Sequence record: NC_029091.1
Direction: 5' to 3' (one strand)
Origin: Escherichia phage APCEc01
Length of the DNA: 64,000 nt
In this document: one piece after another, positions 12,747 to 56,698 of the stretch
Layout of the letters: each line of letters starts with the position of its first letter
Position numbering within the stretch: position 1 is the first letter of the stretch
The notes under the pieces: model-generated
Told to the model about the DNA's origin: nothing
Seen by the model: only the letters and a program-made list of their open reading frames with translations
The model's database searches: none
Position numbers and translations under genes: made by a program

Positions 12747-13034
12747 ATGAAATCCTATAAAGAATTTATATCACCTTTTGCTAACGTTTCTACTCTGACC
12801 GAAGCAACCCTTACTTCCGAAGTTATTAAAGCAAATAAAGGACGTGAGGGTAAACCAATGATTAGCCTGGTTGACGGCGAAGAAGTAAAAGGTACTGTTT
12901 ACTTAGGGGATGGATGGTCTGCTAAGAAAGACGGCGCTACTATTGTTATCTCTCCGGCCGAAGAGACTGCACTGTTTAAAGCTAAGCATATTTCTGTAGC
13001 TCAGCTTAAAATTATTGCAAAAACTCTTCTGTAA
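12747..13034 (+). CDS. internal protein candidate with capsid-targeting N-terminus (IPI-like by position)
   Basis: 95-aa ORF starting MKSYKEFIS, resembling the T4 internal-protein leader MKTYQEFIAE; sits next to 57B where T4 has ipI. Confidence 0.7.
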   Translation: MKSYKEFISPFANVSTLTEATLTSEVIKANKGREGKPMISLVDGEEVKGTVYLGDGWSAKKDGATIVISPAEETALFKAKHISVAQLKIIAKTLL

Positions 13035-13037
13035 GTA

Positions 13038-13080
13038 GTTTACATGCTGATAGGACTATGTTATAGTAGTCCTATCAAAA
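13038..13080 (+). promoter_or_regulatory. early promoter with stem-loop, repeat family A
   Basis: GTTTACA at 13038-13044, TATAGT at 13062-13067, palindrome ATAGGACTAT...ATAGTAGTCCTAT spanning the -10. Confidence 0.6.
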
Positions 13081-13104
13081 CAAATGAGTAAATGGAGAAA
13101 TAAA

Positions 13105-15060: not shown

Positions 15061-15371
15061 GAAGCCGGGTCGCTACCGGCAAGTCGTCGGACTGATGTTC
15101 CCTGAGTAAGGACTGGTCTTAATAAATCTTTACGATTTGTTAATATCCCCTTACATCACAGCAGAAACGGCGCACAGAATTATCGATTCGAGGAAATATC
15201 TTTGTCGTAAGCCGAGTAGCGTTTTTGACGGAACGTTCGGATATGGTCGAGATATGGCCTTTTAAAAATATTGAGTAGCGTCAACTGCTTAATAACCGGG
15301 TTCGAATCCCGGCGTTTCGTACAAACACTTGCCTTAGCAGGTGGAACCCCGACAAGGTTGCCGCAAGGCTT
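15061..15371 (+). ncRNA. candidate small stable RNA region
   Basis: About 300 bp without a credible ORF, GC-rich paired segments and a tRNA-like T-arm (CCGGG-TTCGAAT-CCCGG), closed by a terminator; T4 has small stable RNAs next to its tRNAs. Confidence 0.3.
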
Positions 15372-15399
15372 AGCCCCTTCCGAAAGGTCGGGGCTTTTT
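15372..15399 (+). terminator. intrinsic terminator (GCCCC..GGGGC plus T5)
   Basis: AGCCCCTTCCGAAAGGTCGGGGCTTTTT. Confidence 0.7.
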
Positions 15400-15444
15400 G
15401 GCATAATAATAAATAGATAAGTTAATTAACTTAGGAAAAGCAAC

Positions 15445-15909: not shown

Positions 15910-15914
15910 TAGAA

Positions 15915-15942
15915 TGCCCCTTCCTTATGGTTGGGGCCTTTT
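15915..15942 (+). terminator. intrinsic terminator-like hairpin
   Basis: TGCCCCTTCCTTATGGTTGGGGCCTTTTGG, variant of the hairpin at 15372. Confidence 0.5.
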
Positions 15943-15975
15943 GGTATCTAGGGCATAAAAATATTTCATAAAGAT

Positions 15976-19843: not shown

Positions 19844-19847
19844 AACA

Positions 19848-19890
19848 GTTTACAACAAGATAGGGCTATGTTATAGTAGTCCTATCAAAA
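19848..19890 (+). promoter_or_regulatory. early promoter with stem-loop, repeat family A
   Basis: GTTTACA at 19848-19854, TATAGT at 19872-19877, palindrome ATAGGGCTAT...ATAGTAGTCCTAT. Confidence 0.6.
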
Positions 19891-19905
19891 CAAATGGAGT
19901 CCACA

Positions 19906-20145
19906 ATGATTTATTACGAAAGTATCGGAACCAAAGTGGTTAGTAAAACCATTACTCGTGAAAAGTTTGCAAAGATATTCGATATGCGTTATAAAAAATC
20001 TGAACACAAAGGCATCCGATTCGAAGATGCGCACTGTACAATTTGCCCTTATAATGAAGACATAAACGGTACAATCGTTCCATTGGTAGAGGCTTCACAT
20101 GATGACCTCTGGGATGAATATAATATCGCATGTCGTGAAATTTAA
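19906..20145 (+). CDS. hypothetical protein
   Basis: 79-aa product from ATG after GGAG. Confidence 0.5.
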   Translation: MIYYESIGTKVVSKTITREKFAKIFDMRYKKSEHKGIRFEDAHCTICPYNEDINGTIVPLVEASHDDLWDEYNIACREI

Positions 20146-21210: not shown

Positions 21211-21411
21211 ATGACTACTTTGAATAAACGTTTCGGTAAAGCTAAACCTGGTTGTGCAGCAGAACGTCGTTATGTTTTCGCTCAGTTAGAAGATGTAGAG
21301 TATCAGATTAATCAAGTTCACATTACTGGCATCGAGCCTATGTGTGGCCTTGAAGCTCTTCGTGAAGTTCGTGATGGGTATCGTCGTGACATCGAAGAAA
21401 TGTCAAAATAA
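21211..21411 (+). CDS. hypothetical protein
   Basis: 66-aa product from ATG after GGAG. Confidence 0.5.
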   Translation: MTTLNKRFGKAKPGCAAERRYVFAQLEDVEYQINQVHITGIEPMCGLEALREVRDGYRRDIEEMSK

Positions 21412-21455
21412 GTGTACAAACTGATAGGACTATGTTATAGTAGTCCTATTAAAAC
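21412..21455 (+). promoter_or_regulatory. early promoter with stem-loop, repeat family A
   Basis: GTGTACA -35, TATAGT at 21436-21441, palindrome ATAGGACTAT...ATAGTAGTCCTAT. Confidence 0.6.
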
Positions 21456-21469
21456 ATGAGGAGAATATT

Positions 21470-21775
21470 ATGAAATTAGGCGAAACCAACCGAATTGGTC
21501 TTTTAACAATATTTGTATCACTTTTTTACGCAGCTCTTTCTGTTGCAGTATTACAAAAGGCTTACAGTATGGATGGTGTTCCTGGTTTTGTATTCTTATC
21601 GCCGTTTTTGCTATTCGTTGGAGCATTGTTATTATATGCCACGACTAGTTTCGACCATAACGTCTGGGTCAATTATAAATGTAAATTGTCTGAAGAAGAA
21701 CACGCAGAAGCTCGTAAAAAAGCTATTGAATCTACCAATCTAGAAAATTTCATTAAAGAATGTCGAGGAAAATAA
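21470..21775 (+). CDS. hypothetical membrane protein; C-terminal NFIKECR motif
   Basis: 101 aa, two hydrophobic segments, ends ...NLENFIKECRGK. Confidence 0.5.
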   Translation: MKLGETNRIGLLTIFVSLFYAALSVAVLQKAYSMDGVPGFVFLSPFLLFVGALLLYATTSFDHNVWVNYKCKLSEEEHAEARKKAIESTNLENFIKECRGK

Positions 21776-31603: not shown

Positions 31604-31609
31604 TTTACT

Positions 31610-31637
31610 AGCCCCTTCCGAAAGGTTGGGGCTTTTT
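31610..31637 (+). terminator. intrinsic terminator, near-copy of the 15372 element
   Basis: TAGCCCCTTCCGAAAGGTTGGGGCTTTTT. Confidence 0.7.
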
Positions 31638-31648
31638 GGCATCTATCA

Positions 31649-31891: not shown

Positions 31892-32098
31892 ATGCTTTAC
31901 GATTATACTGGAAAATCTGAAGACGGTGTACTTGAACTTTTACCTGAAAGCGCTGAAGATGATGATACGGTGGTGATGTTTTGTAAAAATGGCCCTGGGG
32001 ATAAGGGATGGATTTATCTTCGTCAAGAAAATGACTTAATTGTTTTGGGCCCAAAACAAGTTGAAGAACTTTATCAACATTTAAAACACAATCGGTAG
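31892..32098 (+). CDS. hypothetical acidic protein
   Basis: 68-aa product. Confidence 0.45.
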   Translation: MLYDYTGKSEDGVLELLPESAEDDDTVVMFCKNGPGDKGWIYLRQENDLIVLGPKQVEELYQHLKHNR

Positions 32099-32140
32099 TT
32101 TACATCTTGGTAGGACTATGTTATAGTAGTCCTATCAAAA
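32098..32140 (+). promoter_or_regulatory. early promoter with stem-loop, repeat family A
   Basis: GTTTACA at 32098-32104, TATAGT at 32122-32127, palindrome TAGGACTAT...ATAGTAGTCCTAT. Confidence 0.6.
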
Positions 32141-32443
32141 CAAACGGAGAACAAAATGAAACTTTTGCTTATCGCTTATGTTGTAGTACAATACAATTAT
32201 CCGATGTTTACTTATAACATGGTAAACGGCATAGTGAATCTTATTGAAACGAGTATGGTAAAATGACCCGTGAACAAGCTAATAAATTGATGGAACTTAT
32301 CCGTAACTTACGTGAAGCCGATTCAGATTTGAATGATGTAGCTTATCATGCAGTAAATGATAACGAAGACTTTTATGAAAATCAGGTTGATGCTTGTCTG
32401 AATGATTTGGTGAATTTTGTTGAAACTTTAATTGGTGAATAAT

Positions 32444-36325: not shown

Positions 36326-36853
36326 ATGAACGCTAAAGATATTTTCAACCTGGTAAATTATAACGACGGTAAATTTAAATCTGAAGCACAAAGCAAGTTC
36401 TTTAATGACGTTGCTTATGGTAACGAGATTACCGTGGACGGAGGTCAGATTTTCAAATCTCGCTGGAATTGGATTGTTATCATCGATTCAGTTGGAATTG
36501 TGGAAGTCTACAAAAACACTAACAAAAAACGTACATTATTCTGGTCTCGTGAAACTAACGAGCAGTACAAAAAGGATAAAGCATCTCGTTTATCCAAAGT
36601 AACCCAGGAAGATATCGAGTTTATCAAGAAAGATATCGAGATGTACGAAAATTTAATCGCTGAAGACCAGGCAGTACTCGATAAGTTTGATGAAATTAAA
36701 GCTTCTCGTGAAATCCCTGACTTCATGAAAGAAACAGTAAACGAACGATACGCTCTCACTTCAGAACGTATTGCAAACTATACAAAACAGAAAGCAGAAC
36801 GTATTAGTACTCTTCGGAAATTTGAAGAACGTTTAAAGACGGTTCACGCATAA
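36326..36853 (+). CDS. hypothetical protein
   Basis: 175-aa ORF. Confidence 0.55.
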   Translation: MNAKDIFNLVNYNDGKFKSEAQSKFFNDVAYGNEITVDGGQIFKSRWNWIVIIDSVGIVEVYKNTNKKRTLFWSRETNEQYKKDKASRLSKVTQEDIEFIKKDIEMYENLIAEDQAVLDKFDEIKASREIPDFMKETVNERYALTSERIANYTKQKAERISTLRKFEERLKTVHA

Positions 36854-36881
36854 ACGCTTTACCCAAGGACGGGTTATAATG
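36851..36881 (+). promoter_or_regulatory. MotA-dependent middle promoter candidate
   Basis: MotA-box-like AAACGCTTTA, 13 nt, then TATAAT at 36875-36880. Confidence 0.5.
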
Positions 36882-36915: not shown

Positions 36916-37911
36916 ATGAGCATTACATCTGATGCGGTAAAACATGAAATTAACGGTTTATGTGCTTCACAGATTAAAGTATGGTTTAAAGACCATAACG
37001 ATCGCAGAGCACTTAATTATGAGCAAATTGCTATCCAAGTTCATCAATTACTGACTAGTAAATTTGATTTTCATATGCCGTCTGAAATCTATACTAATCT
37101 GCCGCGAGCACTTATTAAAGCGTGTAAAGGTTATGGAAAATCAATGGCTGATGGAATCTTCAGCGCGCTGAATAAACTTAACGTTCTGTCGATGATTAAC
37201 TCTAACAACATCCTGCGTAATCTAGGACGTACTGATTTGTTCGGCCGTGAACAGGGTAAAATGCCTTTGAAATGGATTGTTGCTCATCTTAACGAGAACC
37301 AAACACGTTTTATGGCCGTAACAGCACGTTTACAAATGGGCCTAGATCGTCAGATGAACTTTAAAACTCATCCATGTTATTCAGGTTCAACAAACTTTTA
37401 TAAATGTGAGCTTCAAAAGGTCGGTGGCAAAACCGTCTTAGTAGTTCGTGTAACGTTTGAAGGACGACGTCAAGGATATTTTGACATAATCGGCTCTGGA
37501 CTTAAACATTGTGGATTTATCGACGAAGTTGATATCAAGCGAGACGGCGTTGGATACCGTATTGGGTATGTTTGTACTCTTAAAGAAGAGATTTCAGGAC
37601 CAGCTCCAGGACTAAAAGACGTTAGATATAAAGACGAGCTCGTTGAAGAAATAAAAGAAGTTGAATATGATATCAACCAAGAAGATGCTCTTAAAGACCT
37701 TATTGATGAACTGAACCAAGACGTTATTCCGGTTCAGAAATTTGAATCAAAACATGCTGAGCAAATCAAATACTTTGAAGCTTTGATTAACGAACTTAAT
37801 GTAACTATTCAACAGACTGACGATGAAATCTCACGATTAGCAGGCTTAAACGGTAAAAATAAAACAGAACGAGCTAATCTTATTCAAGTAGTAAAACTTC
37901 TTAAGGAATGA
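36916..37911 (+). CDS. hypothetical protein with C-terminal coiled coil
   Basis: 331-aa ORF. Confidence 0.55.
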   Translation: MSITSDAVKHEINGLCASQIKVWFKDHNDRRALNYEQIAIQVHQLLTSKFDFHMPSEIYTNLPRALIKACKGYGKSMADGIFSALNKLNVLSMINSNNILRNLGRTDLFGREQGKMPLKWIVAHLNENQTRFMAVTARLQMGLDRQMNFKTHPCYSGSTNFYKCELQKVGGKTVLVVRVTFEGRRQGYFDIIGSGLKHCGFIDEVDIKRDGVGYRIGYVCTLKEEISGPAPGLKDVRYKDELVEEIKEVEYDINQEDALKDLIDELNQDVIPVQKFESKHAEQIKYFEALINELNVTIQQTDDEISRLAGLNGKNKTERANLIQVVKLLKE

Positions 37912-37950
37912 TGTACAACCAAGGATGGTTGGAGTATAATAAATTTTTCA
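37911..37950 (+). promoter_or_regulatory. early promoter with stem-loop, repeat family B
   Basis: TGTACA -35, TATAAT at 37935-37940; 32 bp (ACAACCAAGGATGGTTGGAGTATAATAAATTT) identical to 38911-38942. Confidence 0.55.
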
Positions 37951-37966
37951 ACATGAGGAATATAAA

Positions 37967-38902
37967 ATGGCTTTTATTACACGTAGAGAACTTATCAAAG
38001 AATTTACCTCGAACGCATATACTCCAGGACCTAATCCTATCCGTATGCCTGTAAAGACTCCTGAAGAGATTGAGGAAATCTGTTCGTATTATGGGATTAA
38101 TTCTCGTAAGTTTACTCAATTTGAATGCGTTACTAACACACCCGTTAAAGAGTTCATTAAAAATGGCGAGTTCAGCCGTTTATTGGCCAAACAGAAACTT
38201 CGTAATTTTTGTATTGGCGGTGAAGGACAATATTTCGCTAAGCAGTTCCGGAATAACCTTAACAATCTGATGGCCATTGCTTCTCGTATTCGTCCTCAAG
38301 CAATTAACATGAAACATTTGAAATATACTTACGATAAGTTGGAAATCATGGTTATCAGTGAGAACGAGTTCACTCTCACGTATAAACCTAAGAATGATAA
38401 CGTTGCTCGTGTATTCCACCAAGCGTTGGAAGTGTTAGGTGATAATATTCACCAGATTAAAGCAATTTATTCTCGTGAGCTTAATATTATCAACCCTATC
38501 AAGAATAAGGGCCATATCGCTATCCAGGCTCGTGTATCTATTGGTAAAAAGGTTCCTGCGCCATGGTGGCACAAAGACTCTGAATACTATCAAAATCTTA
38601 AAAAGGAAAATGCAACGTTCGAAGCGTCAATTACTGCAACCCCAATTGGCCATGCTGAAGTTCTAGGTGCATATTCTACTGCTCCATCTATACACATTTC
38701 ACCGTCGACTAAACTGGAAATCTCTAACGGTCTTCTTCCTGCCGAAGATTACCATTATAATCAAATCAAGGCCACTGTAGACCAACTATCCGTTGAACTT
38801 GACAAAGCACAAGCTAAGCTTCGTGATGCTCAACAAGTAGTTACCAAGCTCCAGTTGCAGTACTCTAAACTTTTTAACGCAATGAATGCGTTAAAATCAT
38901 AA
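37967..38902 (+). CDS. hypothetical protein with C-terminal coiled coil
   Basis: 311-aa ORF. Confidence 0.55.
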   Translation: MAFITRRELIKEFTSNAYTPGPNPIRMPVKTPEEIEEICSYYGINSRKFTQFECVTNTPVKEFIKNGEFSRLLAKQKLRNFCIGGEGQYFAKQFRNNLNNLMAIASRIRPQAINMKHLKYTYDKLEIMVISENEFTLTYKPKNDNVARVFHQALEVLGDNIHQIKAIYSRELNIINPIKNKGHIAIQARVSIGKKVPAPWWHKDSEYYQNLKKENATFEASITATPIGHAEVLGAYSTAPSIHISPSTKLEISNGLLPAEDYHYNQIKATVDQLSVELDKAQAKLRDAQQVVTKLQLQYSKLFNAMNALKS

Positions 38903-38906
38903 ATCA

Positions 38907-38945
38907 GTTTACAACCAAGGATGGTTGGAGTATAATAAATTTATC
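38907..38945 (+). promoter_or_regulatory. early promoter with stem-loop, repeat family B
   Basis: GTTTACA at 38907-38913, TATAAT at 38931-38936. Confidence 0.6.
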
Positions 38946-38964
38946 TTAACGAGAGGAAAATATT

Positions 38965-39915
38965 ATGACACGTTCACATTACATTGAATACTTTGCAGGT
39001 CTTATCGCTAACGTTCATGCCCAACGTGCTTCTGGTGTACTAGGATTTGATGTTCCACACCGAGATGTAGTAAGTGGTATTCTTCGAGATTTTGGTACAT
39101 ACATAGGCCAAGAAAATCATATCTGTAAAGATACTCAAAATGCATATTCTCATTCATTAGGGACACTGCTTCAATGGTTCAAACGTTCTCGTTTATTATC
39201 TTCTACTGTAGCTCGCGATAACATTAAAAACTTTATGAAGCCGAGCTTCATTAAATCTGTGACATCTAAAACCGATTTGGTTGAATTCACTATTGTTAAT
39301 GATGTTAAAAAGACTCATTTGGCTGATTGGTTATCTACCATTCCTGAAACTAAATTTGCTGATAAATTTGCTTGTGAATTCAATAACCAAGTGAATATGC
39401 TTTTTAAACATTCTCGTAAATTATTCACAGGCGGCGATGATCGTACAAATACAGTTCATGCTAAAGATTGGGTTACTGCAGTGTTCAAACCAACCGGTAA
39501 TGGTACCGCATCATTATCAATTGATATTCAGGTTCCTTATTATTACTCACGTAATCTCGGCACCATGAAAGCTGAAGAAATTAAGAAGCACAATAAAACC
39601 ATTCGTTCGCTGTCTTATAAACTTCGCATGATGTTAAGAGTCATGGACGTGGTAGAAATGTATGATGAAACCGAAGATAATGGTTCAATGTTATACAGTT
39701 CTCGCATTCAAATTAAGTTGAAGAACCCTAACGAGTATAAGCCTAAGCCTATTAAAGAGCCTAAAGCAGAAAAAGTTGATAACTTAAGAGAAGAACGCGA
39801 ATATCTCAAATCTCGTCTGAAAGAAGTCGAAGCCCAGATTGCAGAACAAACTAAATCGTTAAAAGCTCTGAATGCGAAAGCGGATGGTTTACGAAATGCC
39901 ATTGAGGTGTTATAA
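38965..39915 (+). CDS. hypothetical protein with C-terminal coiled coil
   Basis: 316-aa ORF. Confidence 0.55.
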   Translation: MTRSHYIEYFAGLIANVHAQRASGVLGFDVPHRDVVSGILRDFGTYIGQENHICKDTQNAYSHSLGTLLQWFKRSRLLSSTVARDNIKNFMKPSFIKSVTSKTDLVEFTIVNDVKKTHLADWLSTIPETKFADKFACEFNNQVNMLFKHSRKLFTGGDDRTNTVHAKDWVTAVFKPTGNGTASLSIDIQVPYYYSRNLGTMKAEEIKKHNKTIRSLSYKLRMMLRVMDVVEMYDETEDNGSMLYSSRIQIKLKNPNEYKPKPIKEPKAEKVDNLREEREYLKSRLKEVEAQIAEQTKSLKALNAKADGLRNAIEVL

Positions 39916-40220
39916 TGAAACTACGTCTTTTAGAGGATATTGATATGAGCACTAATCATGGCTTGGTTAAGTTTATTGACGATAGTTCAAAGATTGAATT
40001 TGTTCAGCGAGATAAAATCCACGGTGAAGAAGAGTTTGTTCCTCCGGCATGGAACGAAATAATGAAAATGGTTGAACGACGTGAAAATGCTGCCAAATCG
40101 GCAGCAAAACATCCATGCCCGGAATGTGGAACTATCCAAGTCCAACTGGTTAACTGGACAACTGATAACTTGAAATTGAAATGCCGTAAATGCTTCCACA
40201 AATTTGAGAGAACATTATAA
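39915..40220 (+). CDS. small zinc-ribbon protein
   Basis: 101 aa with CPECG...CRKC. Confidence 0.5.
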   Translation: MKLRLLEDIDMSTNHGLVKFIDDSSKIEFVQRDKIHGEEEFVPPAWNEIMKMVERRENAAKSAAKHPCPECGTIQVQLVNWTTDNLKLKCRKCFHKFERTL

Positions 40221-40633
40221 TGAGATATAGCCTTCGTTGTTTTATCGCAGCTTTAGTTTTTGCTATTATTCCATTCATTTGGAACAGCCAGAATACTTAC
40301 ATGGAAACTAAAGTAATTCCTGTGGAGGTAGTGGAATTAATCTCAGGCCAATCTACAGGAAAATATTCTAAATTAGAATTTATTGCAGTCTATAAAGATG
40401 AGCAAGGACGAGTTTTTGACAGGCATGTATCACCGTCGTTTTATACGCTTCTGAATAAAGGTGATACGATAGCTATAGAAATTCGTGAGATGGATATCAA
40501 ACAAACTACTAAAGATAACTTGATTTGGTTCTTTGGTACGGTGTTGTTGGTTTCTATCTGTATCACAGGTTTTATTACATGTATTGTATTTGGCGTTGCA
40601 TATTTAATCGATGAAAGGAAAAATAATGTTTAA
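40220..40633 (+). CDS. hypothetical membrane protein
   Basis: 137 aa, N- and C-terminal hydrophobic segments. Confidence 0.5.
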   Translation: MRYSLRCFIAALVFAIIPFIWNSQNTYMETKVIPVEVVELISGQSTGKYSKLEFIAVYKDEQGRVFDRHVSPSFYTLLNKGDTIAIEIREMDIKQTTKDNLIWFFGTVLLVSICITGFITCIVFGVAYLIDERKNNV

Positions 40634-56617: not shown

Positions 56618-56621
56618 AGCA

Positions 56622-56641
56622 ATGGGACTTCGGTCCCATTT
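56622..56641 (+). terminator. hairpin (UUCG loop) after regA
   Basis: ATGGGAC-TTCG-GTCCCAT followed by TTGG; TATAAT 6 nt downstream. Confidence 0.45.
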
Positions 56642-56698
56642 GGAGTATAATAAGTTCATCAACAAACAAAAGACAATAACTCGTCTAAAGGAAATTAA

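Follow-up and report, generated by a model that had tools for sequence, protein, structure and literature searches.

In Escherichia phage APCEc01 (NC_029091.1), three genes of similar size follow one another on the plus strand of the 64,000-nucleotide stretch analyzed here, which will be called the window. They encode proteins of 331, 311, and 316 amino acids and are named w331 (36916-37911), w311 (37967-38902), and w316 (38965-39915) after these lengths. A reading of the sequence alone had picked them out as consecutive open reading frames (ORFs), and this holds: all three lie on the same strand, and each has a Shine-Dalgarno sequence and an ATG start codon. The DNA of the window is that of a Mosigvirus, a T-even phage of the RB69 group, and is 97-98% identical to phages MM02, mar005P1, p000v, and O157 typing phage 3. 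Within this RB69-like genome, the three ORFs sit in the nrdC-mobD hyperplastic block. Two promoter-like cassettes that share an exact repeat stand in front of the second and the third gene, and w311 is therefore bounded by a cassette on either side. The subject here is the kinship of the three proteins, the part played by the cassettes, and the likely role of these genes in infection.

The sequence-only reading could not assign a family to any of the three. Comparison with the nrdC.x ORFs of phage T4 and with related phages, which it had proposed, does assign them, on the basis of T4 similarity together with conserved gene order: the counterparts by position are nrdC.6 for w331, nrdC.5 for w311, and nrdC.3 for w316. 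The order of nrdC.6-, nrdC.5-, and nrdC.3-type genes is common to four genera of the Tevenvirinae (Tequatrovirus, Mosigvirus, Gaprivervirus, and Dhakavirus), and the longer order of nrdC.8, nrdC.6, nrdC.5, nrdC.4 or nrdC.3, and nrdC.2 is also kept in Gaprivervirus VR7 and Dhakavirus VR5. The block differs from that of T4 in that the nrdC.4 copy of T4 has no counterpart in the window phage and in that the alleles of the window are strongly diverged. Genes of the nrdC.6, nrdC.5, and nrdC.3 types are mis-annotated as “thioredoxin” in many records.

The protein closest to its T4 counterpart is w316, an ortholog of NrdC.3, which is an uncharacterized early ORF of T4. The two are 56% identical across the full 316 amino acids (E 1e-121), and w316 is also a paralog of T4 nrdC.4. 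Its homologs match PF26897, its family is phrog_1435, and the homologs fall into three allele classes of about 95, 75, and 55% identity. The family is very small: when 1.8 billion representatives were searched exhaustively by HMMER with the nrdC.3 profile, five matched, the most distant of which is a relative of nrdC.4.

The middle protein, w311, belongs to the NrdC.5 family (Pfam DUF7235). Against the DUF7235 hidden Markov model, it scores 386 bits (cut-off 30; E 1.6e-115), with residues 15-310 on profile positions 1-307, and T4 NrdC.5 scores 418 bits (E 3.7e-125). The RB69 homolog of w311 carries the annotation NrdC.5, and the slot of the gene, between a nrdC.6-type and a nrdC.3/4-type gene, is identical in T4, VR7, VR5, and the window. 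The T4 protein and w311 thus have in common a full-length DUF7235 match, the gene position, the C-terminal helix, and a set of motifs. However, they are just about 23-27% identical (23% in the comparison of the T4 block, 26-27% in an alignment with motifs throughout the length), and w311 lacks several insertions and has a different variable linker.

The first protein, w331, is of the nrdC.6 type but divergent; its homologs match PF26899, and its family is phrog_2257. Identity to NrdC.6 of T4-group phages is about 32% and covers 92-100% of the protein, a match that extends to the nrdC.6 genes of about 590 phages (E about 1e-25). The match to NrdC.6 of T4 itself, again an uncharacterized early ORF, is limited to the N-terminal 139 amino acids (37% identity, E 3e-18). 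The gene is located between nrdC.8 and the nrdC.5-type gene, as nrdC.6 is in VR7 and VR5. Other searches with the proteins added little: the PDB sequences held no related solved structure, PADLOC and NCBIfam profile scans gave nothing beyond sub-threshold coiled-coil noise, and a word-indexed homolog search returned close relatives only.

The shared layout of the three proteins had led to the proposal that they form a paralogous set, to be checked by all-against-all alignment. Ordinary comparison gives no sign of this. Pairwise BLASTP among w331, w311, and w316 found no match, hhalign on shallow alignments of close homologs (effective number of sequences 1.2-1.5) found none either and was judged underpowered, and Pfam and PHROGs file the three in three separate families. 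Profiles enriched in diversity do unite them in part. For these profiles, the family alignments drew their members from T4, from seven loci retrieved from IMG/VR, and from VR7 and VR5, and the control families were taken from the same loci.

In hhalign, nrdC.3 matches nrdC.4 with a probability of 92%. The comparison of nrdC.3/4 with nrdC.5/w311 came out at the top of 78 pairs, with a score of 37.7 versus 24.5 for the next pair and 12-17 for reversed profiles, and in global mode the score was 36.8 versus at most 8.1 among 35 other pairs. With the enriched profiles, the family of w316 (nrdC.3/4) and that of w311 (nrdC.5/DUF7235) match locally with a probability of 93% (E 3.5e-7) and globally with a probability of 96% (E 1.6e-9) over 266 columns, where the score of 51.3 compares with 14.4 for the next-best pair. 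At the profile level, the paralogy of w311 and w316 is well supported.

The tie to w331 is weaker. Taken singly, nrdC.6/w331 gives marginal matches to nrdC.3/4 and to nrdC.5 that are exactly transitive residue by residue, and this transitivity is not independent evidence because the other two families are already homologous. Against the merged nrdC.3/4/5 profile, nrdC.6/w331 aligns collinearly over 206 columns with a score of 40.8 (probability 65%, E 6e-5), compared to 23.3 for the best of 10 controls, 15.7 for the reversed profile, and 13.5 ± 1.8 for column-shuffled profiles. These values make the paralogy of w331 with w311 and w316 moderately supported, and the proposed set stands in full for w311 and w316 and in a more guarded form for w331. 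As judged from these alignments, the unification of the nrdC.3/4, nrdC.5, and nrdC.6 families at the profile level is new here.

Several short motifs run through the alignment. The N-terminal motif TR-x-x-(Y/L)-I-x-x-F is common to nrdC.3, nrdC.4, and nrdC.5; it is accompanied by the shared motif F-K-x-S-R-L-L-S...L-x-N-F, by a helix motif F-x-x-N...A-x-R that is followed by G-D-(R/K)-(T/Q) in nrdC.3/4 and nrdC.6, and by the shared strand motif F-K-P-x-x-N. Ahead of the coil, nrdC.5 and nrdC.6 have P-x-E-x-x-H-x-x-x-I, and the tail carries the shared motif L-x-x-A/V-h-x-L-L-K. These motifs bear on a quite different explanation, in which the three are unrelated ORFans of similar size that acquired a C-terminal coiled coil independently and whose profile similarities are artefacts of composition. 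Such an origin would account for the failure of BLASTP, for the three Pfam and PHROGs families, for an exhaustive nrdC.3 search that reaches nrdC.4 at most, and for a w331 link of 65% probability. It does not sit well with the 266-column alignment at 96%, a clear outlier against the empirical nulls, or with the collinear motifs outside the coil (TR-x-x-Y/L-I-x-x-F, LS...L-x-N-F, F-x-x-N...A-x-R, and G-D-R/K-T/Q), and a control family with a C-terminal coil of its own, nrdC.8, scores just 23. Unrelated origins are thus very improbable.

As members of such a set, w331, w311, and w316 would share one architecture, in which a helical region at the N terminus leads into an alpha/beta body, followed by a hypervariable linker and, at the C terminus, an amphipathic helix. 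Heptad-like C-termini of 40-50 residues had been noted in all three, and a simple scan for the a/d register agrees for two of them. In w311, the heptad helix (amino acids 258-311; 38738-38899, plus strand) is the best-conserved part relative to T4 nrdC.5 and keeps its register over residues 259-311 with a score of 0.95. In w316, it spans amino acids 267-316 (39763-39912, plus strand), is better conserved within the nrdC.3 family than any other part, and keeps its register over the same residues (score 0.88). In w331, the helical heptad-like segment (amino acids 278-331; 37747-37908, plus strand) is shorter and interrupted: the register covers residues 278-311 with a score of 0.72 and is broken by GLNGKNK, and the tail bears the shared motif in the form L-x-x-V-V-K-L-L-K. 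Sub-threshold Pfam matches in the C-termini are mostly to coiled-coil families. The upstream nrdC.8 homolog (36326-36853, 175 amino acids) also ends in a heptad-like segment, at amino acids 146-175, and it is this segment only that gives its score of 23 against the superfamily profile.

AlphaFold2 likewise predicts a long terminal helix in w316 (residues 275-315), with a block-mean predicted local distance difference test (pLDDT) score of about 63-77, and in w311 (residues 258-310), with a block-mean pLDDT of about 49-64. The C-terminal amphipathic helix probably drives oligomerization. The models as a whole are poor (mean pLDDT 54 for w316 and 40 for w311), and the order of secondary-structure elements is similar in the two. 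Foldseek comparison of the models with BFVD and PDB was uninformative. The BFVD matches to the w316 model were 318-378-amino-acid proteins of Serratia phages PS2 and CBH8 and Erwinia phage Cronus, along with E5EYP0/E5EYP1, a pair with adjacent accessions, at a Foldseek probability of 0.75-1.0 and a TM score of 0.17-0.4. To judge from the model, the superfamily may extend to these proteins of Serratia and Erwinia phages as more remote members in other T4-like genera.

The part of each gene that varies most lies just before the helix. Relatives that are otherwise 97-100% identical drop to 73-85% at 38600-38800 and 39600-39800 (and at about 37600 in comparison with phage moha), that is, in the linker before each C-terminal helix, and by their sequence the linkers look like mosaic hypervariable alleles. 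Two further records, PP925831.1 (Pinarejo) and NC_019399.1 (ACG-C40), hold unannotated remnants that encode the C-terminal helix only, of the w331 type (60% identity) or the nrdC.3 type (85%); these look like the footprints of gene-body deletions.

The sequence-only reading had described the same 32-bp promoter and stem-loop before the second and third ORFs, and this proved accurate to the base. The sequence acaaccaaggatggttggagtataataaattt is found exactly at 37915-37946 and 38911-38942 (32 bp, or 33 bp including the preceding T at 37914 and 38910), and the 22-nt core of the repeat has two occurrences in 64 kb versus 0.00 expected from 100 shuffles. Cassette 1 (37912-37946, plus strand; exact repeat 37914-37946) is made up of a -35 element TGTACA (37912-37917), a hairpin (37916-37931), GGAG, and a -10 element TATAAT (37935-37940). 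Cassette 2 (38908-38942, plus strand; exact repeat 38910-38942) has the -35 element TTTACA (38908-38913), the hairpin (38912-38927), GGAG, and TATAAT (38931-38936). These are the best sigma-70-like matches between 34.5 and 41.5 kb, with TTTACA-17-TATAAT matching at 11/12 positions (38908-38936) and TGTACA-17-TATAAT at 10/12 (37912-37940). From these matches, w311 and w316 would each be transcribed from a sigma-70 early-type promoter of their own, and the promoter consensus, together with the description of T4 nrdC.5 as an early gene, is the reason for presuming that the genes belong to the early class.

A related cassette lies upstream of w331 (36857-36880, plus strand) and consists of the hairpin ACCC-AAGGAC-GGGT (36861-36874) followed by TATAAT (36875-36880). 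Its status as a promoter is uncertain because TTTACC is just 11 nt from the -10 element, leaving no properly spaced -35, and the promoter scan of 34.5-41.5 kb did not list it. A cassette of the same type, TATACCA-AGGA-TGGTATAAT, is found downstream of nrdC.8 in T4, VR7, and VR5. Within the 3' end of w316 (39888-39917), the sequence TTTACG-17-TATAAT, with TG, forms a further promoter-like site.

The hairpin CAACCA-AGGA-TGGTTG, with a 6-bp stem, occupies the promoter spacer in cassettes 1 and 2 (-6.9 kcal/mol, z = -2.05). Cassettes with a CCA-AGGA-TGG core precede nrdC.3, nrdC.4, and nrdC.7 in T4, nrdC.6 and nrdC.4 in VR7 and VR5, and w331, w311, and w316 in the window. The stem sequences vary from cassette to cassette and yet remain complementary, the pairs being AACCA/TGGTT, ATCCA/TGGAT, TTCCA/TGGAG (with G.U), TACCA/TGGTA, AGCCA/TGGCT, CCACA/TGTGG, and ACCC/GGGT. 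Over nine cassette types, 88.9% of cells are paired versus 63.9% in shuffles (0 of 500 reach 88.9%), four of the six pairs changed on both sides, and the covariation score is 0.616 versus 0.03-0.14 for slid controls. Selection bias is possible in this test because the nine cassettes were picked by their core sequence; in a less biased scan of IMG/VR with only the loop and the -10 element fixed, a complementary 5' stem was present in 10 of 10 promoter-context matches and in none of the others. The AGGA-loop type is confined to the nrdC block, where its two exact copies are the only ones in 64 kb, and a covarying hairpin within an early-promoter spacer, as predicted from these comparisons, is new here. 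A reading of the hairpin as an intrinsic terminator was rejected, as it has no T-run and does not appear in the terminator scan.

Compensatory changes of this kind, including a variant that pairs via G.U only, are what would be seen if the AGGA-loop hairpin were primarily an RNA element on read-through early transcripts, either as a CsrA-type site or by positioning a RegB/S1 site, and not a recombination or terminator signal; the identity of the cassettes would then reflect selection for the RNA role. The short loop displays GGA as in the CsrA consensus RUACARGGAUGU, which was derived by SELEX, and the T4 nrdC.4 cassette reads ACAAGGAUGU. Of the features predicted for a CsrA site, GGA is present in the loop of all cassettes, and the ACA/UGU flanks are present in the T4 nrdC.4 cassette only, the window having CCA/UGG. 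For RegB/S1, the target is an 11-nt single-stranded sequence in which GGA is followed by an A-rich stretch, and GGAGUAUAAUAAA stands directly 3' of the hairpin. However, an Rfam search with the hairpin gave no match, the predicted transcription start of the cassette itself is downstream of the hairpin, which would therefore be present in read-through RNA only, and a role in RNA is compatible with one in recombination and does not exclude it. A primary RNA function is, on this evidence, unlikely.

What the cassettes do bound is a natural indel. The sliding identity to relatives has a gap at 37900-38900, and the indel unit consists of w311 plus one cassette (37947-38942 or, equivalently, 37914-38909; plus strand, 996 bp), its end-points being ambiguous within the repeat. 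A synthetic deletion junction made of the end of w331, one cassette, and the start of w316 matches phages p000v, G2469, AV110, and JM17 as a single uninterrupted piece of 1105 bp at about 98% identity, and at the base level the junction has the left flank of cassette 1, the common core, and the right flank of cassette 2. With a short junction probe, 21 of 152 related records were found to be without w311, and the remaining 131 equal the number that carry it. The arrangement without w311 occurs in varied backgrounds, as the 21 records span 91.5-98.1% identity. This base-resolved indel, with 21 natural knock-outs of w311, is new here. The nrdC.6, nrdC.5, and nrdC.3 genes themselves, the hyperplastic region, and this kind of shuffling cassette were already known. 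All three are known but uncharacterized accessory genes of the Tevenvirinae, not core genes.

The window cassettes resemble promoter-early stem-loop (PeSL) elements (Arbiol et al. 2010, Comeau et al. 2014). Both are intergenic; both combine a stem-loop and an early promoter of the sigma-70 type with a Shine-Dalgarno sequence and an ATG; and both are repeated in a hyperplastic region, where close relatives differ by an indel that the copies flank and whose crossover falls within the cassette. In the window, the cassettes lie between the upstream stop codon and a downstream ATG with its Shine-Dalgarno sequence and have a sigma-70-like consensus with a 17-bp spacer. The stem-loop is where they differ. 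In PeSLs, it lies upstream of the promoter, whereas the one in the window is short, sits in the -35/-10 spacer, has a conserved AGGA loop, and is not terminator-like, lacking a T-run; an upstream terminator or attenuator stem-loop is absent, and the covarying hairpin within the spacer stands instead. The window type also differs in being confined to the nrdC block, with just two exact copies in 64 kb.

In published work, recombination between PeSL cassettes on either side of ORFs removes those ORFs and gives rise to mini-circles (PMC2839356, PMC4122927). Since the two window cassettes are identical direct repeats, excision or insertion of the unit of w311 plus cassette by phage homologous recombination would be possible, and modular shuffling of the PeSL type would explain why natural relatives are without w311 exactly between the repeats. 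By analogy with the published elements, we infer PeSL-type shuffling as the mechanism at the cassettes. In T4, nrdC.5 follows nrdC.6 directly and has no cassette of its own, unlike w311 with its two. Phage moha (locus L014, 3199-3510), rearranged in other ways at these sites, has an extra ORF with no counterpart in the window between the homologs of w331 and w311; it encodes a predicted membrane protein of 66 amino acids that is homologous to VR7 ORF094c and VR5 gp087 (43-52% identity). Ahead of the cassette after this ORF stands a duplicate of the w311-type gene's final ~24 nt, so that a direct repeat of ~60 bp results. The idea that cassettes are the boundaries of allele swaps in general was rejected: besides the w311 indel, the patches of divergence in the sliding identity lie within genes, in the linkers, and not at cassettes.

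As for function, a phenotype has been reported for one member of the group. The T4 gene nrdC.5, an uncharacterized and non-essential early gene, counteracts Dsr1, and its expression alone restores infection by a deletion mutant on Dsr1-carrying hosts (PMC9391042). Also, nrdC.1 counteracts Septu (bioRxiv 10.1101/2025.11.20.689424), and gp49.2 counteracts OLD (PMC13096335). A motif comparison found no catalytic-type residue conserved across the families, which favors binding proteins over enzymes. The presence/absence polymorphism, the allele classes of 55, 75, and 95% identity, and the hypervariable linkers, taken together with the reported inhibitors, make a counter-defense role the most likely one. 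By analogy, this would be strain-specific counter-defense through the binding of host immune proteins. The three proteins w331, w311, and w316 would act as binding inhibitors of strain-specific host defense systems, with the C-terminal helix serving oligomerization. Among them, w311 is related, though diverged, to the T4 factor against Dsr1.

The proteins could also be paralogs that have nothing to do with counter-defense, namely, early host-takeover or regulatory proteins that modulate host metabolism, transcription, or RNA, in which case the Dsr1 phenotype of T4 nrdC.5 would be indirect or allele-specific. The setting of the block among nucleotide-metabolism genes would suit such proteins, as would the low identity of w311 to T4 nrdC.5 (just about 23-27%) and the silence of the literature on the function of nrdC.3, nrdC.4, and nrdC.6. 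Yet nrdC.5 expressed alone is enough to restore infection on Dsr1 hosts, the nearby nrdC.1 and 49.2 are defense inhibitors as well, and the pattern of presence and absence, allele classes, and hypervariable linkers is that of accessory genes in an arms race. A host-takeover role without counter-defense is, on balance, rather unlikely.

The counter-defense reading as a whole, in which w331, w311, and w316 are deeply diverged paralogs of the nrdC.6, nrdC.5, and nrdC.3 types, non-essential early genes shuffled by way of cassettes, and probable inhibitors of host defense, is fairly probable. Several points weigh against it. The target specificity of w311 may differ from that of T4 nrdC.5 because the two are so little alike, and the literature gave functional data for nrdC.5 alone and none for nrdC.3, nrdC.4, or nrdC.6. 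The link of w331 to the others reaches just 65% in the profile comparison, and the coiled-coil segment supplies part of that score; nor do the models (mean pLDDT 54 and 40) and the uninformative fold searches confirm a common fold. Promoter-like sites between 34.5 and 41.5 kb are not above chance, with 23 found versus 23.4 expected, and it is from the consensus alone that the cassettes are predicted to act as promoters. The hairpin, a weak one within the promoter spacer and without a T-run, gives no support to a PeSL-type terminator role, and the event at w311 may have been either a loss or a gain.

One can take the counter-defense reading further and consider the NrdC.3/4/5/6 superfamily as a modular battery. 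The variable body would recognize host immune proteins (Dsr1 in the case of NrdC.5), the shared coiled coil would provide a common oligomerization or effector function, and the units would be swapped via a dedicated cassette whose AGGA-loop hairpin is itself the functional signal (a CsrA or RegB/S1 RNA site or a recombination signal) and not a by-product of the promoter. This extended version is doubtful.

The significance of the set lies in the phages that carry it. Three genes of hundreds of therapeutic-type coliphages that are labeled “hypothetical” or mis-annotated are placed in one superfamily, one member of which has a counter-defense phenotype, and the superfamily gives concrete candidates for new defense inhibitors. 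The 21 natural knock-outs of w311 can be used for host-range tests, and the locus is a clean natural example of cassette-bounded gene gain or loss at base resolution.

The rest of the block can also be matched to T4. On one side of the three genes are w333 (nrdC.10, 78% identity), w95 (nrdC.9-like, 35%), and w175 (nrdC.8, 83%), and on the other are w101 (nrdC.2, 51%), w137 (nrdC.7-like, 41%), and w92 (nrdC, 91%). The nrdC.2 homolog begins with an ATG that has one base in common with the w316 stop codon (TAATG), an overlap suggestive of translational coupling. The nrdC.7-like gene (40220-40633), which lies between the nrdC.2 homolog and nrdC, encodes a membrane protein. Its slot is held in T4 by nrdC.1, the reported Septu inhibitor, and comparison with T4 proteins showed no nrdC.1 homolog in the window block.

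Elsewhere in the window, many early-type promoters, at 13036-13098, 19846-19908, 21410-21472, 32096-32158, and other sites, have an inverted repeat of another kind, flanking or overlapping the -10 element (GATAGGACTA...TAGTCCTATC), so promoter-embedded hairpins seem to be general and to come in several cassette families. A hairpin at 56620-56664, GGGAC-TTCG-GTCCC, comes before the TTGGAGTATAAT module that the nrdC cassettes also have, with no good -35 element; this may be a terminator plus a -10 variant of the cassette. The ORFs that start at 12747, 15445, 24155, 25240, and 25580 have a conserved 5' end of 30 nt (ATGAAAACATATAGTGAATTTTTATCAGAA-like) that encodes MK(T/S)YxEF..., which hints at another small paralogous family. 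A terminator-like hairpin that is rich in G+C and has a T-run (TAGCCCCTTCCGAAAGGTCGGGGCTTTTTGGCAT) is present three times, at 15371-15404, 15914-15947, and 31609-31642.

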